From: Candidatus Bathyarchaeota archaeon
Lineage (GTDB): Archaea > Thermoproteota > Bathyarchaeia > TCS64
DNA length: 50,242 nucleotides
Direction: 5' to 3'
Assembly: GCA_043826455.1 (NCBI GenBank)
Contig: JBDRQD010000028.1
Span: forward strand, 1 to 50,242
The notes below the pieces were generated by a model that saw nothing but the letters and a program-made list of their open reading frames with translations, had not been told where the DNA came from and ran no database searches. Below are positions 1 through 15,384 of this stretch, piece after piece. The translations under genes were made by a program, and so were the position numbers. Each line of letters begins with the position of its first letter. Within the stretch, counting starts at the first letter, position 1.

Positions 1-71
1 AGAAATATTTTTTATCTCTCATTATGTAAAATGCAAAATATTTTTAATTTATTAACATTTATTCCTTTATC

Positions 72-1112
72 ATGATAAAAGAAAGTGGCGAAGTTTATCT
101 TTTATTTCCAGATGGAGATTTTCTTTTAACATACGTAAACAGTAGCAGCAGTTATCCTCATTATCTTGATCTTATGCCTGATTGGATTTTTTGGATAGCA
201 GCATTCAAGTGTAAAAAATGTAACTCAACAAGTCTTTATTCAGGAGAAGCGGAGGCTTTTGATTCACAGGAAAGGCAAATGGGAAATGAGACATTTTATG
301 GATCAACAGAATATTTTAATTGTCCCAACTGTAATGAAGAAGTATCTATTACAACTACATTTACTTATTATGCTTTTGCATGGATAACAGAAGTTGAAAG
401 TAGAGAAGTAGAACTCGTTGATATATATAACTTATCTACGTATTTAGAAGAATGGTGTAAAAATAAAATTGAATTAAAAAATAAAGAAACTCAACTTGTG
501 TGGGATTCTGAATTAATAGGTAAACTTAGAAATTCTTTAGATAAAAGACATGGATTTTTAATTATTGTAGAAGGTGATGATGATTTAGAAGTAATTCGTC
601 AATTTTTTATAAATGGAGGTATTGATATGAATAGAATATCGATTGTCAAATATGGTAAAGGGGGATGTGAAGAAGCAATAAAATTTTTAAAACCTTTTAA
701 GAGTAGAATTCTTAAAGAGGTACCTCATTTATTGATACTGGATTCTGATAACAAAAAAGAAGAATATGAAAAAAAATTAAAATCAGAGGGTTTTCAAAAA
801 GAAGAATATTATATCTTAGATCAAAAAGAAATTGAATCATATTTAATTGATATAAAAGCCATATCAACTATCCTTAGTGTACCTGAAAAGATTATCTCAC
901 GAGATTTAAAAATTAAAAAAACAATGGGGAAAGAAGAACTAGATTATATTTTTGAAAAACATTATGGAACTAAACCCAATTCACAAACAAAAGGTTTAAT
1001 AGCAAAAAATATGGATGTGCCAGTTGAATTTGTCAATATTATAGAAATTATATTTAACTCATTGGAACAATATAGATATTTAATAGAGGGTGAAGAAAAT
1101 TACGAAAGATAA
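72..1112 (+). CDS. Zinc-ribbon + OLD/DUF4435-like TOPRIM domain protein (possible defence nuclease)
   Basis: CxxC...CxxC (CKKC, CPNC) in N-half; TOPRIM motifs IIVEGDDD, ILDSD, EIESYL in C-half; no ATPase motif; very AT-rich. Confidence 0.65.
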   Translation: MIKESGEVYLLFPDGDFLLTYVNSSSSYPHYLDLMPDWIFWIAAFKCKKCNSTSLYSGEAEAFDSQERQMGNETFYGSTEYFNCPNCNEEVSITTTFTYYAFAWITEVESREVELVDIYNLSTYLEEWCKNKIELKNKETQLVWDSELIGKLRNSLDKRHGFLIIVEGDDDLEVIRQFFINGGIDMNRISIVKYGKGGCEEAIKFLKPFKSRILKEVPHLLILDSDNKKEEYEKKLKSEGFQKEEYYILDQKEIESYLIDIKAISTILSVPEKIISRDLKIKKTMGKEELDYIFEKHYGTKPNSQTKGLIAKNMDVPVEFVNIIEIIFNSLEQYRYLIEGEENYER

Positions 1113-1208
1113 GAGTTAATAAAATAGTATATTTAAGTGATAACCATTGTTAGAAGGCAAGAGAGAGCGTTCGCTTGGTAAATTTACTTTGAAAATATAT
1201 TCGTTAAA

Positions 1209-1652
1209 TTACTTCTTATGTACACGTTTTGAAATTTTAATCCAACGGTCTGAATACTGAATTTCTTCTAGCAAGTTTCTATCAAATTCAGACAACTCAT
1301 TTTCTTTGAATATTTTATTTAGTTCTTTTTGATAGTTAATTACTTCGATAAATTTTGAATCCTTATCAATTTTGATCTCAATTGGCTCACCACTATGAAC
1401 ATAAATAATTATTTTCCTATCGCTGTCTCTTATTGATAATATTTGGATAAATAATCCTAAAATTGTAGCAACTGCAGCTCCACTTGTTAACACTGTAACT
1501 AAATCAAAAGCAGCTCCACTTGCTTTTCTACTATCAAGCGTATATACATCTCCATTAATAATAGAAGAAATGTCTTGAGCTATCTCATACATTTCTGATA
1601 AAGAAGCATCGGCAATTACCATTTTTAAAAGAAGGGGATACATTTCTATCAC
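1209..1652 (-). CDS. Hypothetical membrane-associated protein, EACC1-like
   Basis: 147-aa ORF; hydrophobic segment GAAFDLVTVLTSGAAVATILGLF followed by a beta-hairpin-like KIIIYVHSGEPIEIKI, resembling effector-associated constant component 1. Confidence 0.4.
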   Translation of the reverse strand: MIEMYPLLLKMVIADASLSEMYEIAQDISSIINGDVYTLDSRKASGAAFDLVTVLTSGAAVATILGLFIQILSIRDSDRKIIIYVHSGEPIEIKIDKDSKFIEVINYQKELNKIFKENELSEFDRNLLEEIQYSDRWIKISKRVHKK

Positions 1653-1679
1653 ATAGAAAATTAACTCGCTTCTTATTCA

Positions 1680-1740
1680 TTTTTATTCACGCATGCTTTT
1701 TTACTAGTAAATCGGTGCTCGAGTCCCTCCTCCCGCGCAC
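1680..1740 (+). mobile_element. att-like site 1: element end plus degenerate tRNA(Leu-like) 3' fragment
   Basis: CTTTTTTACTAGTAAATCGGTG (1696-1717) identical to 7377-7398; followed by CTCGAGT-CCCTC-CTCCCGC = T-loop, 3' T-stem, 3' acceptor strand; sits at a sharp AT-to-GC shift. Confidence 0.7.
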
Positions 1741-1917
1741 GCGGCCAGGGCACAGAGAAATATTTCACATTTTTTGGGGGTTGTTTGCTGTAGCATTAGC
1801 AATACAAGGATCAGCGCCCGCTGGACTTTTAGGATCCTTTTTCTGGGGTTTACCGTCCCACTTTTTATTAGATTATATGCTTTAGATGTGCACGCGCAAC
1901 GGGTGTGTACATAAGTA

Positions 1918-1925
1918 TTTTTATA
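1918..1925 (+). promoter_or_regulatory. TATA box candidate for the UvrA-like gene
   Basis: TTTTTATA about 40 bp upstream of ATG 1967. Confidence 0.4.
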
Positions 1926-1966
1926 GACTTGAGTGCACCTCAAAGACTCATTCTGAGGCATGTTGG

Positions 1967-4213
1967 ATGGACTCAGTTGAGGTAATAGGCGCCAGGGAGC
2001 ACAACCTACAGAACATCTCAATCAGTATACCAAAGAAGAAACTCGTAGTATTCACAGGAGTATCTGGTTCTGGTAAGAGCAGCCTCGTCTTCGACACCGT
2101 CTACCAGGAAGCTCAGCGCCAGCTCATAGAGACTTTCAGCACCTTCGCTCGCCGGAGGCTCCCAAAGATAAACAGACCTGACGTCGATGAGCTCAGAAAC
2201 ATCTCTACAACTATTACCATAGACCAGAGAAAGCTCGGCTCCACGCCTCGCTCCACTGTCGGCACAGTGACGGAGGTCTACACTTACCTTCGCCTACTCT
2301 ACAGCCGCCTCGGCGAGCCCACAACAAACGACAGCCGTCTTTTTGGCTTCAACAATCCCTACGGCATGTGCCCTGAATGTAAGGGGCTTGGAAACGAACT
2401 CGTGTTCGATGTGGACGCCCTAATCGACTGGGATAAATCAATAAACGAGGGAGGGATAAGGCACCGACACTTCCAGCCAGGGATGGCCAGCTACCGCGTC
2501 ATCGTTGCCAGCAACTACTTCGACCTAGACAAGAAGCTCCGCGACTACACTAGAGAGGAGCTCCACAGGCTCCTATACACCAAGAAGAGCCTCGTAGAGA
2601 AGCCTATGCCAGGGCAGGTCTACAGGGTCTGGTACGAAGGAGTCGTCGAGACCCTGCAACGCCGCACCATGGGGAGAGACGGCGAAGAGGGCGACACCCT
2701 AGCATCCCACGGGATGCAGTTCTACAAGAGTCAACCCTGTAAGGCTTGTAATGGGAGCCGTCTAAACGAGTTTGCACGAAGTGTGAGGCTTCATGGGAGA
2801 ACATTACCGGAGCTGGTAGAGATGGAGCTTAACGTTCTTCTTGCCTGGTTGAGGGAGATAAAAGGTCCCGTCGCGGACCCCATAGTCGGTAGGATTCGCC
2901 CCATACTGCAGAACCTCGTCGACATTGGCGTCGGCTACTTAAACCTTAACAGAGGAACGGGGACTCTGAGCGGTGGAGAGAGCCAGAGGGTCAAGATGGC
3001 AAGCCAACTCGGCTGTGACCTCGTCGACCTCATCTACATCTTCGACGAGCCGACAGTGGGTCTCCACCAGAAAGATATAGGGAAGCTAATTGACATGCTT
3101 CAGCGCCTCAAGGATAAGGGGAATAGTCTCCTCGTCGTAGAACATGACCCGCAGGTCATGAAGGCATCCGACTGGATCATAGATATGGGACCCGGAGCAG
3201 GTGAAGCCGGCGGGGGCATCGTTTTCATGGGTACATATCCTGAGCTTATTGAATCAGGTTCCATCACAGGGATAATGTTGAGACGCGGTACATCATATAG
3301 GGCTGAGAGAAGGAAGCCCCTGGGCTGGCTGACTATTAATGACGCCCGAGAACACAACCTTAAAGGGATAAATGTGAAAATACCCACAGGAGTTTTCTGC
3401 TGTATTACTGGGGTCGCTGGCTCGGGTAAGAGCACCCTGATCCTAGACGTCTTCGCGAAGACTCACCAGGAAGCTATAGTGATAGACCAGTCAGCTGTCG
3501 GGCGAAGCACTAGGAGCAACCCCGCCACATACACGAAGGTATTCGACCTTATAAGAAAGGAGTTCGCCAAAGCGACTGGCAGAGATGCATCTCTTTTTAG
3601 CTTTAACGGCGCTGGAGCATGCCCTAAATGTAAGGGGAGCGGGCGACTCCATATCGAGATGTTCTTCCTTGAGGACGTCACCATGGTCTGCGACGAGTGT
3701 GAGGGTAGAAGATATAGACCTGAGGTCCTCAGCCTCCTCTATAGGGGTAAAAACATTGCAGACATCCTAGACTTGACAGCGAAGGAGGCGGCGGGATTCT
3801 TTGATAACAGGGAGATCAAACACCGCTTAGAAGTACTCGATGAGGTCGGACTTGGATACCTCAGGCTCGGGCAGGAAGTATCCAGCCTGAGTGGAGGGGA
3901 AGCGCAGCGACTTAAACTAGCACGCGAACTTCACAAGCGAGGCAACATCTACATCTTGGACGAGCCGACAACAGGCCTCCACATGGCGGACATAGAGAAG
4001 CTGCTAAACGTCGTCAACCGACTAGTCAACGCGGGGAACACTATGATTGTGATCGAACACAACCTTGACGTGATAAGGAACGCTGATTGGGTGATAGACA
4101 TGGGACCCAAGGGGGGCTCAAAGGGAGGCGAAATTATCGCCGAGGGTACGCCAGAGGAGTTGACGCATACAGCGAGAAGCTATACAGGGAGGTACCTCAG
4201 TAGTGTGCTTTAA
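1967..4213 (+). CDS. uvrA: UvrA-family ABC ATPase, short class II (UvrA2/DrrC-like)
   Basis: GAREHNL start, two Walker A motifs (GVSGSGKSS, GVAGSGKST), LSGGE signatures, Zn fingers; 748 aa from ATG 1967, shorter than canonical UvrA; no uvrB/C nearby. Confidence 0.85.
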   Translation: MDSVEVIGAREHNLQNISISIPKKKLVVFTGVSGSGKSSLVFDTVYQEAQRQLIETFSTFARRRLPKINRPDVDELRNISTTITIDQRKLGSTPRSTVGTVTEVYTYLRLLYSRLGEPTTNDSRLFGFNNPYGMCPECKGLGNELVFDVDALIDWDKSINEGGIRHRHFQPGMASYRVIVASNYFDLDKKLRDYTREELHRLLYTKKSLVEKPMPGQVYRVWYEGVVETLQRRTMGRDGEEGDTLASHGMQFYKSQPCKACNGSRLNEFARSVRLHGRTLPELVEMELNVLLAWLREIKGPVADPIVGRIRPILQNLVDIGVGYLNLNRGTGTLSGGESQRVKMASQLGCDLVDLIYIFDEPTVGLHQKDIGKLIDMLQRLKDKGNSLLVVEHDPQVMKASDWIIDMGPGAGEAGGGIVFMGTYPELIESGSITGIMLRRGTSYRAERRKPLGWLTINDAREHNLKGINVKIPTGVFCCITGVAGSGKSTLILDVFAKTHQEAIVIDQSAVGRSTRSNPATYTKVFDLIRKEFAKATGRDASLFSFNGAGACPKCKGSGRLHIEMFFLEDVTMVCDECEGRRYRPEVLSLLYRGKNIADILDLTAKEAAGFFDNREIKHRLEVLDEVGLGYLRLGQEVSSLSGGEAQRLKLARELHKRGNIYILDEPTTGLHMADIEKLLNVVNRLVNAGNTMIVIEHNLDVIRNADWVIDMGPKGGSKGGEIIAEGTPEELTHTARSYTGRYLSSVL

Positions 4214-4338
4214 GTCCCGTTATATCAACGCGCGCGTACAACCACTTTCAAAACGATCTAAAATAAGTCCCGTAAAAGGTAAAATATGCCACCTTAAATA
4301 TGTGTAACCTTCTCTCCCCACTCCTATACTAGCACCAT

Positions 4339-4369
4339 AATCGATGATTTTATCATCACTTCACCCTAA
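4339..4369 (+). repeat. Cassette-boundary repeat copy 1
   Basis: AATCGATGATTTTATCATCACTTCACCCTAA; contains dyad GATGAT-TTT-ATCATC. Confidence 0.85.
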
Positions 4370-4388
4370 GTGTATTTAGTGGTGTTAC

Positions 4389-5246
4389 TTGAAATTAGGA
4401 GTTCATGGAGTAACATTGAGTCTACCTTTCGGTAAAGGGTCCACTCCTGAGATAGTCGCTGAGATTGTTCTCAAATCAGGAATCAGATGCCTCACAATAC
4501 CCATAAAGTCACCAACATGGAAAATAGACCCAGAGACTACCACAGGCTACGAAATCACCAAAATAAAAAAAGCTGTACCTAAGAGCCTAGAAATAACCGG
4601 GATAGGATACTGCTGGCCAAACGAATACAATATGATAACGGCCTCACCAACTGAGTGGAATAGAAACCTCAACTACGCAAACAAACTACGGGAAATAGCA
4701 TCAGAGTTCGATGCTCAACACATTGTGATAGGTGCGCCTGGTAGAAGCGTTCCAGCTGGGGTTCCTTATTATGATGGGGTAAAGAGGCTGGTAAAGTTCT
4801 GGAAAGAGGCGTGTGCCATGCCTGAGGGTGAGGATGTGATGTTCTGTATTGAGCACTCGAATGTCGCTAGAGCTAATGTTGGGAACGCAACCAAGTCGTT
4901 AATTGATCTAGTGGATGCGGTTGATTCACCTTCATTCAGGATGATTGCGCAGATAGGGGATATGGCGGTTAATGATCTTGATGTCGTGGATGCTATTAGG
5001 GATGCGGGTGATAGGATTAAGCAGGTTCATATTGCTGATGTTTCTGCTTTGAATCCTCTAGATGAGGGTTGGTCTTCTTTATTGTTGCCTGGTAGAGGTG
5101 TTTTAGGGCTTGTTGAGATATTTGGGGCTCTCAAGGACGTTGGCTATGATGGGGAAATATGTGTTGAGGCATTACTTGGAGATGACCCCTTATCAGCATT
5201 AACAGATTATAGAAAAAACGTACAAAAACTATGGAAAAAAGCATAG
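4389..5246 (+). CDS. Sugar-phosphate isomerase/epimerase family TIM-barrel protein
   Basis: FCIEH, QVHIAD, LLPGRG, GYDGEICVE motifs; TTG start. Confidence 0.8.
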   Translation: MKLGVHGVTLSLPFGKGSTPEIVAEIVLKSGIRCLTIPIKSPTWKIDPETTTGYEITKIKKAVPKSLEITGIGYCWPNEYNMITASPTEWNRNLNYANKLREIASEFDAQHIVIGAPGRSVPAGVPYYDGVKRLVKFWKEACAMPEGEDVMFCIEHSNVARANVGNATKSLIDLVDAVDSPSFRMIAQIGDMAVNDLDVVDAIRDAGDRIKQVHIADVSALNPLDEGWSSLLLPGRGVLGLVEIFGALKDVGYDGEICVEALLGDDPLSALTDYRKNVQKLWKKA

Positions 5247-5252
5247 CAACCC

Positions 5253-5276
5253 AATCGATGATTTTATCCTCACTTC
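5253..5276 (+). repeat. Cassette-boundary repeat copy 2
   Basis: AATCGATGATTTTATCCTCACTTC, starts 7 nt after the stop of 4389-5246, between convergent genes. Confidence 0.85.
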
Positions 5277-5294
5277 TGTGTGAGCTGGGGTGCC

Positions 5295-5519
5295 TTATTT
5301 TGGGTTACATTCACGGCAAGGTTGCCAATACTCAGTGTTCTTGTGTTCTGACTGAAAAAACTCATAGGCGCTCTGGAAGGACTCATATTTGAACCAGCCG
5401 CCACTTCTTTTCATCTGGTTAATTCCTTTCTCTTCGCTTTCTACTGGTTTACAGAATCGACAAGAATCATGATGAAGTTTCCAGGCGCCATTTGTCTTAT
5501 CAACGTTTAACCAGAACAC
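5295..5519 (-). CDS. Small Cys/His-rich putative metal-binding protein
   Basis: 74 aa, HHDSCRFC...WQPCREC; own TATA-like TTTTAAGTA on minus strand at 5541-5549. Confidence 0.7.
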   Translation of the reverse strand: MFWLNVDKTNGAWKLHHDSCRFCKPVESEEKGINQMKRSGGWFKYESFQSAYEFFQSEHKNTEYWQPCRECNPK

Positions 5520-5592
5520 GGTATTGACATGGATTTTATCTACTTAAAACATCGTAAAAACACGTTATTACCAATCAGAGCCAGCAACCAAG

Positions 5593-5623
5593 TATCAAAC
5601 ATTTTATCCTCACTTCACCCTAA
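5593..5623 (+). repeat. Cassette-boundary repeat copy 3
   Basis: TATCAAACATTTTATCCTCACTTCACCCTAA; right 23 bp match copy 1 with one mismatch. Confidence 0.8.
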
Positions 5624-5631
5624 TTCTACCC

Positions 5632-6159
5632 ATGATTGAGCTATCAACAATACGAGATATTGTAGCCATCTTCGGAGTAATCGCTGGTTTCAGCTACTAT
5701 GTAATGACAGTCAGAGCTAACCAACGAAACACACGAATCACTCTGACAAACAGTATCATGCAGACAATGCTGAGCGAGGAAGCCCAGAGACGCTGGATAG
5801 AACTTATGAACATGGAGTGGAGTGACTACGATGACTTCGAGAGGAAGTATGGGTCAGATGTCAACCCAGAGAACTACGCTAAGCGTGCAACTGTTTGGAA
5901 CAGCTATAACATGCTGGGGAACCTCCTGATGAAGAATATTGCTGATGCTGAGACTTTCTATAGCGCTGGCGGTACCTGGGCGATATTTATTTGGGAGAAG
6001 TTTAAAACCGTTTTAATGGAGCATAGAAGTCGGTATGGATCGGCTGACACGTATAAGGGGTTAGAGTATCTGGCTACGGAGATGTTTATGATAAGAAAAC
6101 AGCGCGATCCTTCTTATCAGATTCCCAAAACATTCACAAAGTACATTACAGAAAAGTAG
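5632..6159 (+). CDS. DUF4760-like single-TM protein, paralogue 1
   Basis: N-terminal TM helix ending YY; MEWSDYDDFERKYGSDVNPENYA motif shared with next ORF. Confidence 0.6.
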   Translation: MIELSTIRDIVAIFGVIAGFSYYVMTVRANQRNTRITLTNSIMQTMLSEEAQRRWIELMNMEWSDYDDFERKYGSDVNPENYAKRATVWNSYNMLGNLLMKNIADAETFYSAGGTWAIFIWEKFKTVLMEHRSRYGSADTYKGLEYLATEMFMIRKQRDPSYQIPKTFTKYITEK

Positions 6160-6162
6160 ACT

Positions 6163-6193
6163 CCTCGATAACATTATCTTCTCTTTTTGGTAA
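6163..6193 (+). repeat. Cassette-boundary repeat copy 4 (degenerate)
   Basis: CCTCGATAACATTATCTTCTCTTTTTGGTAA; starts 4 nt after the stop of 5632-6159; aligns gaplessly to TCGATGATTTTATCCTCACTT. Confidence 0.5.
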
Positions 6194-6213
6194 TCCTTAA
6201 TCAGTGATTGTTG

Positions 6214-6789
6214 ATGGTTGAGTTAGCTACTCTTCAGGCGGCGAGCTACATCATGGGCAGCCTCGGCGTCTTCGTGGCTGCAGTCTACTACATTCTGAAC
6301 ATACAGAACAATAAGAAGAACCAAGAAATGCAATTGGAAACCAGGCAGTTTCAATTATTAATGCAGATGTCCGAGGTACCAAATTCTTACGAGGGAAATT
6401 TACAATGGACAGAATTTTTAAACATGGAATGGAGCGACTATGATGACTTCGAGAAGAAATATGGATCAGACAACAACCCAGAAAACTATGCATTAAGAAC
6501 CACCATGCTTGGCTGGTTTAACAAAATGGGGCTTCTAATCAAATACGAGAAGATAGACCCTGAACTTGTCTACGACTTTAATGGGCCAATGGCTATCTGG
6601 GCTTGGAACAAGTTTAAGGACATTACCTTAAAGCAGCGTGAACTATATAATCCAACAAGCCAATTGTCGTTTGAGTATTTATTTAATGAGATGAAGCGAA
6701 TACACGAAAACAGAGGATACTCCGCAGAATCCTCTATGACCCCACTAAAATATACTCCTGAGTTAAGGGAAAGAGCAATATCATCATAA
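6214..6789 (+). CDS. DUF4760-like single-TM protein, paralogue 2
   Basis: N-terminal TM helix ending YY; MEWSDYDDFEKKYGSDNNPENYA; ATG 6214 preferred over TTG 6208. Confidence 0.6.
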   Translation: MVELATLQAASYIMGSLGVFVAAVYYILNIQNNKKNQEMQLETRQFQLLMQMSEVPNSYEGNLQWTEFLNMEWSDYDDFEKKYGSDNNPENYALRTTMLGWFNKMGLLIKYEKIDPELVYDFNGPMAIWAWNKFKDITLKQRELYNPTSQLSFEYLFNEMKRIHENRGYSAESSMTPLKYTPELRERAISS

Positions 6790-6892
6790 TTCACTTGGTC
6801 GCTCCATTTTTCAATGTAATAAATTTCCTCTTTTTTACATTGGTGTATTAGGGAACTCATCGCCCTCATTTAAGGCTCACATCTGACTGTCT

Positions 6893-6923
6893 AATCGATG
6901 ATTTTATCATCACTTCACCATAA
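6893..6923 (+). repeat. Cassette-boundary repeat copy 5
   Basis: AATCGATGATTTTATCATCACTTCACCATAA, 30/31 identical to copy 1. Confidence 0.85.
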
Positions 6924-6953
6924 TACTAAATATTTCATCGCTAAATTAGATGT

Positions 6954-7349
6954 ATGTTCAAGGAAATAGAGCACGTTGAAATAATAACCCCTAACCTAGA
7001 AGAGTCAATAAAATTCTACACCGAAATTATTGGGTTTAAAATAATAAATAGGAAAAAAATAGGTACACATGGGATTTCTGAGTTAGCTCATCTTTCTCTT
7101 AATGAGAGCAGGTTAGAGTTAATTGAAATGAGAGAAGCTGCTCCTGTTTTGGAGCATCCTCATATTGGTTATAGGATGATGGCTCTAATTGTAGATGATA
7201 TGGATGATGCGATAAAACTTCTCAAGGCTAATAATGTGAAGATTACGAGGGAGCCTAGAAGTATGAATGAGTCTGATCGTGGAGGTTTTAGAGGAGAGTT
7301 CCAGGATAATAATGGAGTTACCATAGAAATCAGACAACTAGCAAAATAG
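6954..7349 (+). CDS. VOC/glyoxalase family protein
   Basis: IEHVEI...SIKFYTEIIGF, LELIE, FQDNNGVTIEI. Confidence 0.85.
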   Translation: MFKEIEHVEIITPNLEESIKFYTEIIGFKIINRKKIGTHGISELAHLSLNESRLELIEMREAAPVLEHPHIGYRMMALIVDDMDDAIKLLKANNVKITREPRSMNESDRGGFRGEFQDNNGVTIEIRQLAK

Positions 7350-7352
7350 CCC

Positions 7353-7420
7353 ATCCAATAATTTTATCCACAATTCCTTTTTTACTAGTAAATCGGTGTT
7401 CGATCCCCACCCCCCGCACC
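7353..7420 (+). mobile_element. Degenerate boundary repeat copy 6 fused to att-like site 2 with tRNA-Leu-like 3' fragment
   Basis: ATCCAATAATTTTATCCACAATTC, then CTTTTTTACTAGTAAATCGGTG, then TTCGATC-CCCAC-CCCCCGC-A-CC (T-loop, T-stem, acceptor strand, discriminator); GC content rises to the right. Confidence 0.75.
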
Positions 7421-7467
7421 TACGCCGGACTCTGCTATTTGCGTTTTAGGAGTATGTGTACGCAGCC

Positions 7468-8337
7468 TTATTCTGGTCTCTTGATTTTCTGTTCGGCTAT
7501 ATCATGTGCTGTTATACTTGGATGATGGTATCTTCCATTCTGCTCGGTGTACGACTTCAGGTACCACCTGGATTTTATCTGGATGGACTGCTCCGGACAG
7601 TAGTTGAAGCACGCGAAGCAGCCGTAGCACGCCGCCTCTTTAAGCCAAACCGGTTTTCCGTCAACCAACTCTATTTTCCGGGCTAGGCAAATCGTTTCGC
7701 ATAACCTGCAGCCGTTGCACTTGGAGTCCGCGTAGAAGTCGAAATTGCTTTCAGCGAGCTTGCCGATGGGGAGTAGAACCGGGATGAGAAGGTTGATGAT
7801 GGGTAGAAAGGGCACCATGAAGGAGGGTGGAGGGGCCACGCTGCTCAGGTCTTCTTCCCGGTGAGTCTCCCTGTCCATGATTATTCTTTGAATGGAGTCA
7901 AGTCGTCTCTGAGCCTCAGACTCCAAAGACGCTATCTTCTCGGGGGTTATCTGCGCCTCGGGGTCTTTGAGGATCGCCGCGCTGCCGCTGGGCATGGTGA
8001 TGACGAAAAAAGAGTCGAGCCTTCTGCCCCGCTTACCCAACACCTTGTCTATCTCACCGAAGGCTCGGCACTCTGTGCCTCCCCTCGTCGCCACAGCGAA
8101 AATGTACTTGGCTGAACCCAAGTCGAGTCTCTTTATGAACTTTTCAAAGATTTTTGGGGCCATGGAGGCGTACTGCGGAAACACGAAGCCCACGGCCTCC
8201 GCGCTGGCCTTAACGGATTCCACGTCTAACAGGCTCACTATCGGCGTGAGCCTCGTCCCCGGTATACGCTTCTGAAGCTCCCTCGCTACGTGAAGCGAGT
8301 TTCCGGTCCCTGAGAAATAGTATATTTCTGTGCTCAT
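7468..8337 (-). CDS. EFR1-family ferredoxin (flavodoxin-like + 2x[4Fe-4S])
   Basis: YYFSGTGNS N-terminus; CNGCRLCETIC and CYGCFACFNYCP. Confidence 0.9.
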   Translation of the reverse strand: MSTEIYYFSGTGNSLHVARELQKRIPGTRLTPIVSLLDVESVKASAEAVGFVFPQYASMAPKIFEKFIKRLDLGSAKYIFAVATRGGTECRAFGEIDKVLGKRGRRLDSFFVITMPSGSAAILKDPEAQITPEKIASLESEAQRRLDSIQRIIMDRETHREEDLSSVAPPPSFMVPFLPIINLLIPVLLPIGKLAESNFDFYADSKCNGCRLCETICLARKIELVDGKPVWLKEAACYGCFACFNYCPEQSIQIKSRWYLKSYTEQNGRYHHPSITAHDIAEQKIKRPE

Positions 8338-8535
8338 GGAGGCATCATTAATTCATCGACTTCTACGATAAGAATTACTAGCACAATTAGATATCAGGTT
8401 GGCACTCATGTTCACGAGGATCAAAGTTATTTGAAAGGAGATTATCGGGAGGTACATCCATCGAGGTTTCAGCGTCCCCCCATTTAGGGTGCAATTGACG
8501 AAGAGGCGTTGCCTTAACAGAAAAGCGGATAAGGG

Positions 8536-9561
8536 GTGAACCGGATGGTGAATGGGTTTCAGGTGAGCTTAACGAGGCACGAGTTCAACCGGCGGCTGCT
8601 GGAAAGCAGGCTGATGCTGCCGCCCCTGGCGGGGTACACGGACCACCCGTACCGCTGCATACTGGCCGGCTTCCACCCGCCCTTCATCTGCACGGAGATG
8701 GTCAGCCCCCACGGCATAATACACAGAAACCCAAAGGTCATGCGGAGCCTTGAACTCATCGAGGGGCCGCATCTGAGCGGCGTCCAGCTGGTGGGCGACG
8801 ACCCCCAGGCCATGGCCGAGGCGACGCGCATCGTCGAGTCCATCGGCTACGACTACGTTGACATCAACATGGGGTGCACCGTGGCTGCGGTCACTCGCAG
8901 CGGCGCGGGCGTCTCCCTCATGAGGTCCCAGGAGAAGGCGATCGGGGTCGCCAGGGCCGTCGCTGATGCCGTGAGTATTTCTGTGACGTGCAAGATGCGT
9001 CTCGGGGCGTCCAGCGGGAACATGAACGCGGTCCAGCTGTCCATGGGGCTGGCGGATGCGGGCGTCTCAGCAATAACAATTCACGGGAGGAGTGGCGACA
9101 AGAAGTTCGGTCTGCCGGTGGACTACGACGGGATAAGGGCGGTGGTGGAGGCCGTTGATGTCCCCGTCGTGGCTAACGGCGGCATATTCACGGGGAGGGA
9201 CGCGCTGGTGATGGCGGAGCGGACGGGGGCTACGGCGGTGATGCCGGGCCGCGGCCTCATCGGAAACCCCTGGCTGGTGACGGAGATACGGTCAGCGTTC
9301 ACCGGTGAGGCATACGCCCCGCCGTCGCTGGAGGAGCGAAAGGAGGTGTGCCTCAGGCACCTGCGCACGCTGTGCGGCTTCTACGGGGAGCAGAAGGGCG
9401 TAATAGCCATGAGGCGGGTGCTCCACGAGTACTTCTCCGGGTGCCACCGCCTTTATGCGCTGAAGCATGAGATGCTAAGAGTCACCTCCTATAACGATGT
9501 CCAGGCTCTACTGGATCGGGTTCATGAAGATGGGCCTTACATGTTCTTCAGCGAGACGTGA
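8536..9561 (+). CDS. dus: tRNA-dihydrouridine synthase (DusB-like)
   Basis: LPPLAGYTD, TEMV, DINMGC, IHGR, VVANGGI, GRGLIGNPW; exact start uncertain. Confidence 0.9.
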   Translation: MNRMVNGFQVSLTRHEFNRRLLESRLMLPPLAGYTDHPYRCILAGFHPPFICTEMVSPHGIIHRNPKVMRSLELIEGPHLSGVQLVGDDPQAMAEATRIVESIGYDYVDINMGCTVAAVTRSGAGVSLMRSQEKAIGVARAVADAVSISVTCKMRLGASSGNMNAVQLSMGLADAGVSAITIHGRSGDKKFGLPVDYDGIRAVVEAVDVPVVANGGIFTGRDALVMAERTGATAVMPGRGLIGNPWLVTEIRSAFTGEAYAPPSLEERKEVCLRHLRTLCGFYGEQKGVIAMRRVLHEYFSGCHRLYALKHEMLRVTSYNDVQALLDRVHEDGPYMFFSET

Positions 9562-14217: not shown

Positions 14218-15384
14218 ATGTGTAAGGCAAGTAAGACCGTGTTAGCGGCTCTCCTGATACTCTTTACGTTAGTTCCTCACGCCTCGGCCACCGAGTCACC
14301 TTCACCCCGTCACGGGGCCAGAATGATCTACGACCCAGTGAACCAGAGAGTACTGCTCTTCGGCGGAGCCAAGTACGAGAACAGGTACACCTTCTACAGC
14401 GACATGTGGGCCTTCGACACCGCCTCGGAGAAATGGACCAGAGCAGAGGCACCCGCCGGTCCAGAGGGCAGGTTCAACCACAACATGGTGTACGACCCGG
14501 ACAGGCACCAGATCATCCTCTTCGGCGGCTTCAGCGGCAGCGACAGAATCGGTGACACATGGATCTACAGCGTGGCTGAGAACACTTGGACCCGGATCAA
14601 CGTTAGCCCCTCGCCACCGCCCAGGAGCGACGCCGGTTTCGTCTACGACGAGGCCCACGGCGTCGCCATCCTCTTCTCAGGCTACGGCCTCAACGACTTC
14701 CACCACGACGACACATGGGTCTTCGACCCCGACGCCGGAGTCTGGACCCAGATGAGCCCACCGACAAGTCCCCCCACCATGTATGGCTGCATGATGGTCT
14801 ACGACAGGGCCAACCAGGCTTCGCTCCTCCACGGAGGCCACTGGGTGTCCAACACCCAGAGCAGCGTCCACGGTTACATAAGCAGCGTATGGACCTACAG
14901 CCTCGACCAGGACACTTGGACCGAGATACAGACGGCCTCCAAGCCGTCGGGCCGGTACTGGCACATGATGGCCTACGACACGAGCCGCGGAGAGTCCCTC
15001 ATATACGGGGGCTCCGCCGGCGGCGGCGACCCGAAGAGCGACGCCTGGACCTACGACTATGCCGGGAACACGTGGACCCAGGTGACCCAAGATGGGGGCC
15101 CCGGCCCAAGAGAGAACACATGGATCGCCTACAATGAAGCCAACAACGCCTACGTCCTCTTCGGTGGCCTCGGCCCCGGCAGCCAAGCATTGGCCCTCAA
15201 GGGGGACACCTGGATATTGCGGCTGGAGGGTGACCAAGGTAGCTGGGCTCTTGTGGGGGCGGAGCCGGCCGAGGAGCCGGCCACGGAGCCGCCCCCGGAG
15301 GGCATCCCAAGTTATCCGTTGACGGCGATGACAGTATCCCTGGCGCTGGCTGCGTGGGCCCTGAGAAGGAGAGCCGATAAATAA
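14218..15384 (+). CDS. Secreted Kelch-repeat beta-propeller with C-terminal sorting/anchor signal
   Basis: Six repeats of P.R...M.YD...LFGG...D.W; signal peptide; Pro/Glu linker, GIPSYP + TM + RRR. Confidence 0.88.
   Translation: MCKASKTVLAALLILFTLVPHASATESPSPRHGARMIYDPVNQRVLLFGGAKYENRYTFYSDMWAFDTASEKWTRAEAPAGPEGRFNHNMVYDPDRHQIILFGGFSGSDRIGDTWIYSVAENTWTRINVSPSPPPRSDAGFVYDEAHGVAILFSGYGLNDFHHDDTWVFDPDAGVWTQMSPPTSPPTMYGCMMVYDRANQASLLHGGHWVSNTQSSVHGYISSVWTYSLDQDTWTEIQTASKPSGRYWHMMAYDTSRGESLIYGGSAGGGDPKSDAWTYDYAGNTWTQVTQDGGPGPRENTWIAYNEANNAYVLFGGLGPGSQALALKGDTWILRLEGDQGSWALVGAEPAEEPATEPPPEGIPSYPLTAMTVSLALAAWALRRRADK

Follow-up and report, generated by a model that had tools for sequence, protein, structure and literature searches.

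In the PeSL cassettes of the T4-type phages RB49 and phi1, promoter-bearing intergenic elements are repeated in variable regions, single accessory genes are gained or lost by crossovers inside the element, and circles have been shown; no dedicated recombinase was identified (PMC2839356). Integron arrays and clusters of attC sites lacking integrases (CALINs), archaeal ones included, are described as tandem one-gene units with co-oriented repeats, an order that varies between genomes, stop codons that touch the site, genome-specific site variants and a cargo of GNAT, SnoaL, nitroreductase, DinB and hydrolase genes (PMC9668308). Short sites also bound the small shuffled accessory modules (pdif or dif modules) of Acinetobacter, where each site consists of two Xer arms around a 6-bp spacer and each module lies between inversely oriented sites (PMC13141974). 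Lastly, homology-type exchange driven by low-specificity archaeal integrases such as IntpTN3 has been described, as has modular exchange among tandem integrated elements, in which identical segments of 104 bp are the short end (PMC8371274). Integrases of tRNA islands could supply exchange of this type in trans. In this study we analyzed a stretch of 50,242 nucleotides from a Candidatus Bathyarchaeota archaeon (assembly GCA_043826455.1, contig JBDRQD010000028.1, forward strand; hereafter the window), in which six co-oriented copies of a short direct repeat delimit an array of single genes between positions 4339 and 7378.

The evidence tips slightly towards a reading in which this repeat is a promoter shared by the units that also serves as a handle for short-homology exchange within tRNA-anchored islands. 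The array appears to be a real case of promoter-mediated modular shuffling in an archaeal chromosome, resembling the PeSL cassettes in the way it works and CALINs in its layout and cargo; no published description of such a repeat was found in the open-access literature. It differs from what is described of PeSL in lying on an archaeal chromosome, in its predicted BRE-TATA promoter (B recognition element followed by a TATA box), in its length of about 24 to 31 bp, in its many antisense units and in its tRNA-island location; no stem-loop terminator was found inside the site, and circles have been seen for PeSL alone. Unlike the integrons and CALINs described, it has no attC fold, no RYYYAAC/GTTRRRY ends and no identified IntI, and each unit boundary is predicted to be a promoter, whereas integrons rely on a single one, Pc. 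Direct repeats without arms, and with no identified XerA, distinguish it from the pdif modules as described, and most of the repeats share 22–31 bp rather than the 104 bp reported for tandem integrated elements.

The six copies, all on the + strand, occupy positions 4339–4369, 5253–5278, 5593–5623, 6163–6193, 6893–6923 and 7353–7378, score 36.8, 34.8, 30.3, 8.6, 36.8 and 25.7 bits on the family matrix, and agree with the 24-nucleotide window consensus at 23, 24, 20, 16, 23 and 18 positions, respectively. The 15-nucleotide core occurs exactly four times in the window, compared to 0.00 times expected from 100 shuffles. In copy 1 a BRE-like stretch (site positions 5–10) is followed by a TATA-like stretch (11–18), a conserved CCTCACTTC-type tail and TAA at 29–31. 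Exactly one open reading frame (ORF) lies in each interval: a sugar-phosphate isomerase/epimerase-like gene (AP_endonuc_2; 4389–5246, + strand), an antisense gene for a 74-amino-acid Cys/His protein without a Pfam match (5295–5519, − strand), two DUF4760 genes (5632–6159 and 6214–6789, both +) and a VOC/glyoxalase-family gene (6954–7349, +). Copies 2, 4 and 6 begin 7, 4 and 4 nucleotides after the preceding stop codon, copy 2 lies between convergent genes, and the terminal copy 6 is followed by no sense gene. Copy 3 has an ATG at +40 without a Shine-Dalgarno (SD) motif and falls in the leaderless class. The degenerate copy 4 was accepted in spite of its low score because of its position, with an ATG at +52 and GTGA, and because it matches a 28-bit site on contig C75 in register at 79%. 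The window agrees with the original prediction, which had been made from the letters alone and had described the six copies, the single genes between them, the convergent genes at copy 2, the missing sense gene after copy 6 and stop-to-site distances of 4 to 7 nucleotides. A seventh copy at 1672, hinted at by a repeat in the window, was ruled out (−16.4 bits). The GC content of the array is 41%, compared to 59% in the remaining contig.

The repeat is not local to the window. When the source genome (G000, 81 contigs) was scanned with a matrix built from the six copies, 43 sites exceeded 17 bits, as against 0, 0 and 1 with column-shuffled matrices, and the refined family matrix gave 33 sites in 19 clusters. 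An exact 18-nucleotide pattern is present in 36 of 59 genomes of one Bathyarchaeia family and, once each, in 3 of 191 other genomes of the class; genome G234 alone has 93 matches to it, and 40 of the 43 GTDB loci with a site carry Bathyarchaeia titles. The logo of 215 sites reads TCvAtrRyyTTATCCTCAcwTC with a weaker TRA at 29–31, and the dominant site variant differs genome by genome. A dyad in the core, which had been described beforehand, is present in copies 1 and 5 and in different form in copy 4, yet it is not conserved in the family since position 17 is C in 89% of the 215 sites. In this logo ATAA and TTAT lie 2 bp apart, without matching Xer arms around a 6-bp spacer. The earlier view that the repeat is not an attC site is borne out as well: no RYYYAAC or GTTRRRY core sites were found in the six intergenic spacers, and 80 sites gave no fold signal on either strand (mean minimum free energy −3.4/−4.1 kcal/mol, mean z −0.13/−0.15). 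Pairing of the site with the downstream SD or start region in an attC-like manner was rejected for the same want of a fold signal. A search of a viral collection with one site pattern returned 0 matches; the 2 matches to a second pattern lie within a single coding gene on a cyanophage-like contig and were taken as chance. Sites were also seen at loci L048 and L055, on records labelled Clostridia and Thermoplasmata; these were not used as evidence of transfer, and L055 is likely misbinned, given its N runs and phage-like genes. In G195 (L255:14386–17293) a diverged variant with TTTT replacing TTAT stands before and after DUF4760 genes.

Sites within 3 kb of each other are co-oriented in 280 cases and not in 17. 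The array loci were fetched because they bear sites and are thus not a random sample. Among the 280 co-oriented intervals, 133 contain a single ORF in sense and 45 a single ORF in antisense orientation; 31 lack an ORF and 71 contain at least two. Because 45 of them enclose a single antisense gene, the repeat cannot be a promoter only, as had been argued from the window. Stop codons crowd the site, with 36 of 150 at +9. DUF4760 genes account for 103 of the 270 ORFs that have a site on both sides, and the other 167 belong to 126 families. A Pfam scan of 115 of these families (the other 11 were short or confined to G000) showed GNATs, SnoaL, nitroreductases, DinB, OsmC, hydrolases, transporters, a few resistance-enzyme-like folds and many unknowns. 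Loci L025 and L028 share a two-gene unit between sites, common to G010 and G016 at 88% identity, which looks like a toxin-antitoxin pair. In the sister genus a second element, consisting of two inverted CTTATCC-like boxes (L092:10025–10790, L095:13322–13354, L176:3819–3915), often occurs between a pair of sites and upstream of antisense genes; it may be a two-way promoter.

Several lines of evidence support well that single-gene units shuffle with joints at the repeat. The Cys/His gene is flanked by sites twice in G016, where its neighbours differ each time and also from those in the window. The epimerase unit aligns with locus L307 from 4338 to 5276, from site to site, at 73%, and other genes lie outside. 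A 443-nucleotide contig from a run of another study covers one full repeat period (5277–5616) with 8 differences; its 80 nucleotides before and 23 nucleotides after the matched period bear no likeness to the window. Other contigs begin to match the window at 4347, 5254 and 5601. L300 and L318 have in common a luciferase-like unit of about 1 kb that extends from one site to the next, with neighbours that differ on either side. Comparison of 483 sites gave 34 pairs with a flank that is at least 80% alike. The likeness is confined to the upstream flank in 18 of them and to the downstream flank in 15; 1 pair is intermediate and 0 are alike on both flanks, compared to 28 of 75 pairs alike on both in a control of 3469 gene starts (Fisher p = 7e-6, an overstated value, as the pairs are not independent; identical 60-nucleotide contexts had been merged beforehand). 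In a window-type set, to which 126 metagenome loci were added and from which sister-genus loci were omitted, 26 of 27 pairs are alike on one side only, the 27th being a self-overlap; this set has some pairs in common with the 34. The flavodoxin/4Fe-4S gene that forms the conserved flank right of the array (7468–8337, − strand) has no site in G008 and, in G013, a different two-site unit in opposite orientation. In G020 this gene breaks off after about 41 codons and adjoins an ORF that looks integrase-like by eye (L040:5737–6102). Read depth in the probable source run is 5.2 over 6646–7411 but 10.8 and 14.1 in the adjoining stretches, which weakly hints that some of the population lacks the VOC unit.

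The spacing of the site elements strongly supports the earlier suggestion that TTTTATC in the repeat acts as a TATA box and predicts an archaeal BRE-TATA core promoter. Among 456 sites, 153 are followed by an ATG-led ORF of at least 90 codons starting at +27 to +90. None of these ATGs lies at +27–39; 23 lie at +40/41, of which 0 have an SD-like motif, and 81 lie at +48–56, of which 68 have one. With +40 as start, the BRE (5–10), TATA (11–18) and TRA (29–31) of the site are near −33, −26 and −11. These offsets are those of the BRE, TATA and −10 element of Thermococcus promoters (PMC5316973), which argues by spacing for promoter activity of the site. TTTTATC and CTTATC are among the TATA variants of the tRNA promoters of G000, and the diverged variant ahead of DUF4760 genes in G195 keeps a TATA element.

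Where crossovers fall was read from the one-sided pairs. In window-type pairs of 95–98% identity, upstream-linked pairs diverge at positions 22–27 and downstream-linked pairs agree from 4–27. In a mixed set, mostly from the sister genus, 9 upstream-linked pairs agree at 10.3 of 11 positions in the left arm (background 7.1) and at 8.1 of 9 in the right arm (background 7.5), and 11 downstream-linked pairs agree at 8.1 and 6.4 positions (same backgrounds), which hints at a bias of the crossover towards the right edge. Several non-paralog breakpoints cluster at 21–27. Crossovers between DUF4760 paralogs also occur at about −1 and +93, and the unit shared by L300 and L318 is an internal mosaic; both observations point to ordinary homologous exchange at work. 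An RNA-copy model starting from the transcript start was rejected, as homology starts before +40 and no reverse transcriptase was found in G000.

In the reading that we favour, the repeat would be a family-specific core promoter (BRE, TATA and −10 element, start near +40) with an extra conserved 9-bp tail. A crossover within the 22–31 bp that direct repeats have in common would lead to deletion, insertion or duplication of the intervening DNA, and one-gene units would thereby move between arrays and genomes. A sense gene would always arrive behind a working promoter, and an antisense gene would bring its own and merely be bounded by the repeats. Arrays would accumulate at tRNA 3' ends, in islands of low GC content. 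Catalysis would most likely fall to host short-homology recombination, perhaps with help from island integrases, and not a dedicated cassette integrase. Scattered crossovers, the L300/L318 mosaic, genome-specific site variants, the missing dyad or hairpin and the lack of a recurring recombinase all argue for exchange driven by homology.

Several observations weigh against this explanation. A length of 22–31 bp is short for classical homologous recombination; efficient use of microhomology reportedly occurs in TACK archaea. As many as 303 of the 456 sites have no ATG-led ORF at +27 to +90 (TTG and GTG starts and contig ends being uncounted). Ordinary promoters of G000 (181 of 1882 genes, aligned alike) have nothing resembling the CCTCACTTC tail, and site positions 16–24 are far more conserved than in those promoters. 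Sites ahead of antisense genes score as high as those ahead of sense genes (27.6 versus 28.4 bits, p = 0.28, all sites having been chosen by score); together with the extra conservation, this suggests that a protein could bind the sites. Conservation across the site is seen too: one contig spans copy 4 plus both neighbours (6042–6225, 86%) and L378 aligns across copy 4 (6153–6310). In G050 a 98% duplicated unit ends 15 bp and 268 bp short of the site in its two copies. Finally, in the sister genus the site tends to travel whole with the upstream gene, whereas plain homology predicts no such bias.

The location of the arrays points to tRNA-anchored islands. Of the 19 site clusters in the source genome, 7 lie within 7 kb downstream of a tRNA gene, a zone that makes up 8.2% of the genome (binomial p = 5e-4), and all 7 are co-oriented with the tRNA. 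Copy 6 is followed by a 12-bp palindrome (7381–7392) and by 23 bp that exactly match the 3' end of tRNA-Leu(CAG) (7398–7420), a feature absent from the original prediction. On contig C67 this palindrome adjoins a tRNA-like copy next to a tyrosine integrase; a second palindrome with a tRNA-Leu-like 3' fragment, left of the island segment at 1700–1736 (+ strand), is identical to that copy at 18 of 18 positions. The stretches 1700–1736 and 7381–7420 (+), the latter at the right edge of the island, may thus be att remnants of tRNA-targeting islands. About 9 such combinations were seen in the genome, including those in the window and on contigs C25, C30, C31, C67, C69 and C80, and they adjoin a ribbon-helix-helix-like gene and an integrase on C67 and on contig C40 of G234; they are probably the att signature of one integrase family. 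Arrays that start beside a tRNA-linked integrase were found on G050 C34, G234 C40 and G234 C44.

We regard as unlikely, if far from negligible, that a dedicated enzyme acting in trans, such as a tyrosine integrase of a tRNA island, a type IB topoisomerase (TopoIB) or some unknown protein, reads the asymmetric site. Such an enzyme would cut at or just right of the tail (about 21–27) and would excise and insert circles with one site, the promoter being a second function. The strict direct orientation (280 versus 17), the stop codons crowding the site and the non-paralog breakpoints at 21–27 would fit this, as would a conservation that exceeds promoter needs even at antisense-gene sites and the whole site kept by the upstream gene in 9 close pairs. 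Sites also lie directly against the att-like remnants of tRNAs, and the start of some arrays is next to a tRNA-linked integrase. TopoIB is present in all 5 genomes tested, and site positions 20–23 (A-C/G-T/A-T) fit a cut consensus of eukaryotic Top1; on its own, the presence of TopoIB does not discriminate. No inverted arms surround any spacer, however, and crossovers occur outside the core too. The original prediction had placed a specific recombinase outside the window, and this part of it found no support. In G000, 6 tyrosine recombinase matches (PF00589), IS110 pieces and one weak dif-like candidate were found, and no resolvase (serine recombinase). Tyrosine recombinases of mixed kinds occur patchily, in 52 of 71 family genomes, and none was found in the site-bearing G195, G216 and G228, whose genomes are incomplete or not verified as closed. 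Among 1218 proteins near sites, no recombinase family is represented by more than 3 members, and the Pfam scan of the 115 flanked families contained no recombinase or transposase. Of 9 recombinases scanned (2 of the 6 from G000, where the 4 weaker hits were left unscanned, and 7 from relatives), 0 reach the cut-off for IntI (TIGR02249; best 75 bits against 265) or XerA (NF040815; best 169 against 220). Circular intermediates are postulated: a site-to-site back-joint, the sign of a mini-circle, was not seen in the contigs of 4 runs, which drop rare forms, and 0 of 122 loci had terminal repeats. The clustered arrays that the original prediction had anticipated were found, mostly with one gene per interval, with neighbours that differ among relatives and with breakpoints inside the repeat, but no recombinase family recurs beside them, and a site-specific mechanism is unproven. 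The data are explained no less well by short-homology recombination at a shared promoter.

With similar reserve, one may entertain an integron equivalent of independent origin, run by a dedicated enzyme that might be a tRNA-island integrase working in trans or the archaeal TopoIB, in which the unfolded, non-palindromic site is itself a core promoter and each captured gene is switched on behind a TATA box. Equally tentative is the further part of this proposal, that arrays reach up to about 100 units and are dominated by a hypervariable membrane-protein family.

It is distinctly improbable that the repeat is no more than a promoter or regulon motif carried along by the spread of the DUF4760 gene family, with foreign genes arriving through illegitimate events in decaying DUF4760 units and homology seeming to stop at the site through intergenic divergence. 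The large DUF4760 share of the flanked ORFs, the DUF4760 leader and first codons that often persist ahead of antisense genes, and the duplicated unit that ends 15 bp before a site are what this would predict, and 37 of the 75 control gene-start pairs are alike downstream only. Only 2 of those 75 are alike upstream only, however, compared to 18 pairs at sites. Unrelated genes recur from site to site with new neighbours at 77–98% identity, and 167 flanked ORFs belong to 126 other families. Sites are moreover absent from distant Cys/His homologs (35–58%; 0 of 14 with a site within 300 bp) and present at the 76% homologs. It is very improbable indeed that the repeats are target-site duplications made by Cas1-like or transposase-like insertion at a preferred site: direct repeats of 24–26 bp around inserts near tRNAs do resemble the behaviour of casposons, but duplication predicts the same variant on both flanks, whereas copies 2 and 3, which bracket the Cys/His gene, are unlike at 4 of 24 positions and site variants are inherited asymmetrically, being shared by upstream-linked pairs (10.3 of 11) and hardly by downstream-linked ones (8.1 versus 7.1; right arm 6.4 versus 7.5).

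DUF4760 deserves separate mention. The model of the protein is all-helical (predicted local distance difference test score 92.5), with a long N-terminal helix in the first gene of the window. A role as enzyme was considered and dropped: Foldseek gave no match at E ≤ 0.001, and the best VIA match (Z 7.6 at a root-mean-square deviation of 6.3) is uninformative for a helical protein. An Atlas search with DUF4760 returned only DUF4760 clusters, and PADLOC found no match among 7 unit proteins scanned. Genomes of other families have 1–3 DUF4760 copies, with a site upstream in 0 of 9 genes inspected, and 8 of the 9 regions fetched from these families held one DUF4760. In G234 (L175–L217), by comparison, this hypervariable, membrane-anchored family has expanded massively, to 102 DUF4760 candidates in arrays that hold at least ten units.

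Elsewhere in the window, a UvrA-like ABC ATPase gene (1886–4213, + strand; true start probably 1967) forms the upstream context of the array. The segment 1–1680 has a very low GC content of 27.6%; a 346-amino-acid protein at 72–1112 has an OLD-like TOPRIM part and a PADLOC match to AriAB (E 1.7e-8) and is a possible defence gene. Repeats spaced 153–156 and 330 bp at 14514–15183 probably belong to a beta-propeller-type repeat protein. An Rfam scan of 1–9000 gave zero matches, and sigma-70 and terminator scans remained at chance level.

These arrays matter in several ways. If host recombination acts at the repeat, a promoter of 25 bp would suffice as a universal plug for gene exchange, and the PeSL idea would reach cellular chromosomes; if an enzyme acts, its recombination chemistry would be new and might serve as a tool. 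As a simple marker, the site can be used to find accessory genes, and integron finders would miss the arrays that it delimits. It would also account for the expansion of DUF4760 in G234. Abundant sediment archaea would thus gather and reshuffle accessory genes in an integron-like manner without the parts of an integron.

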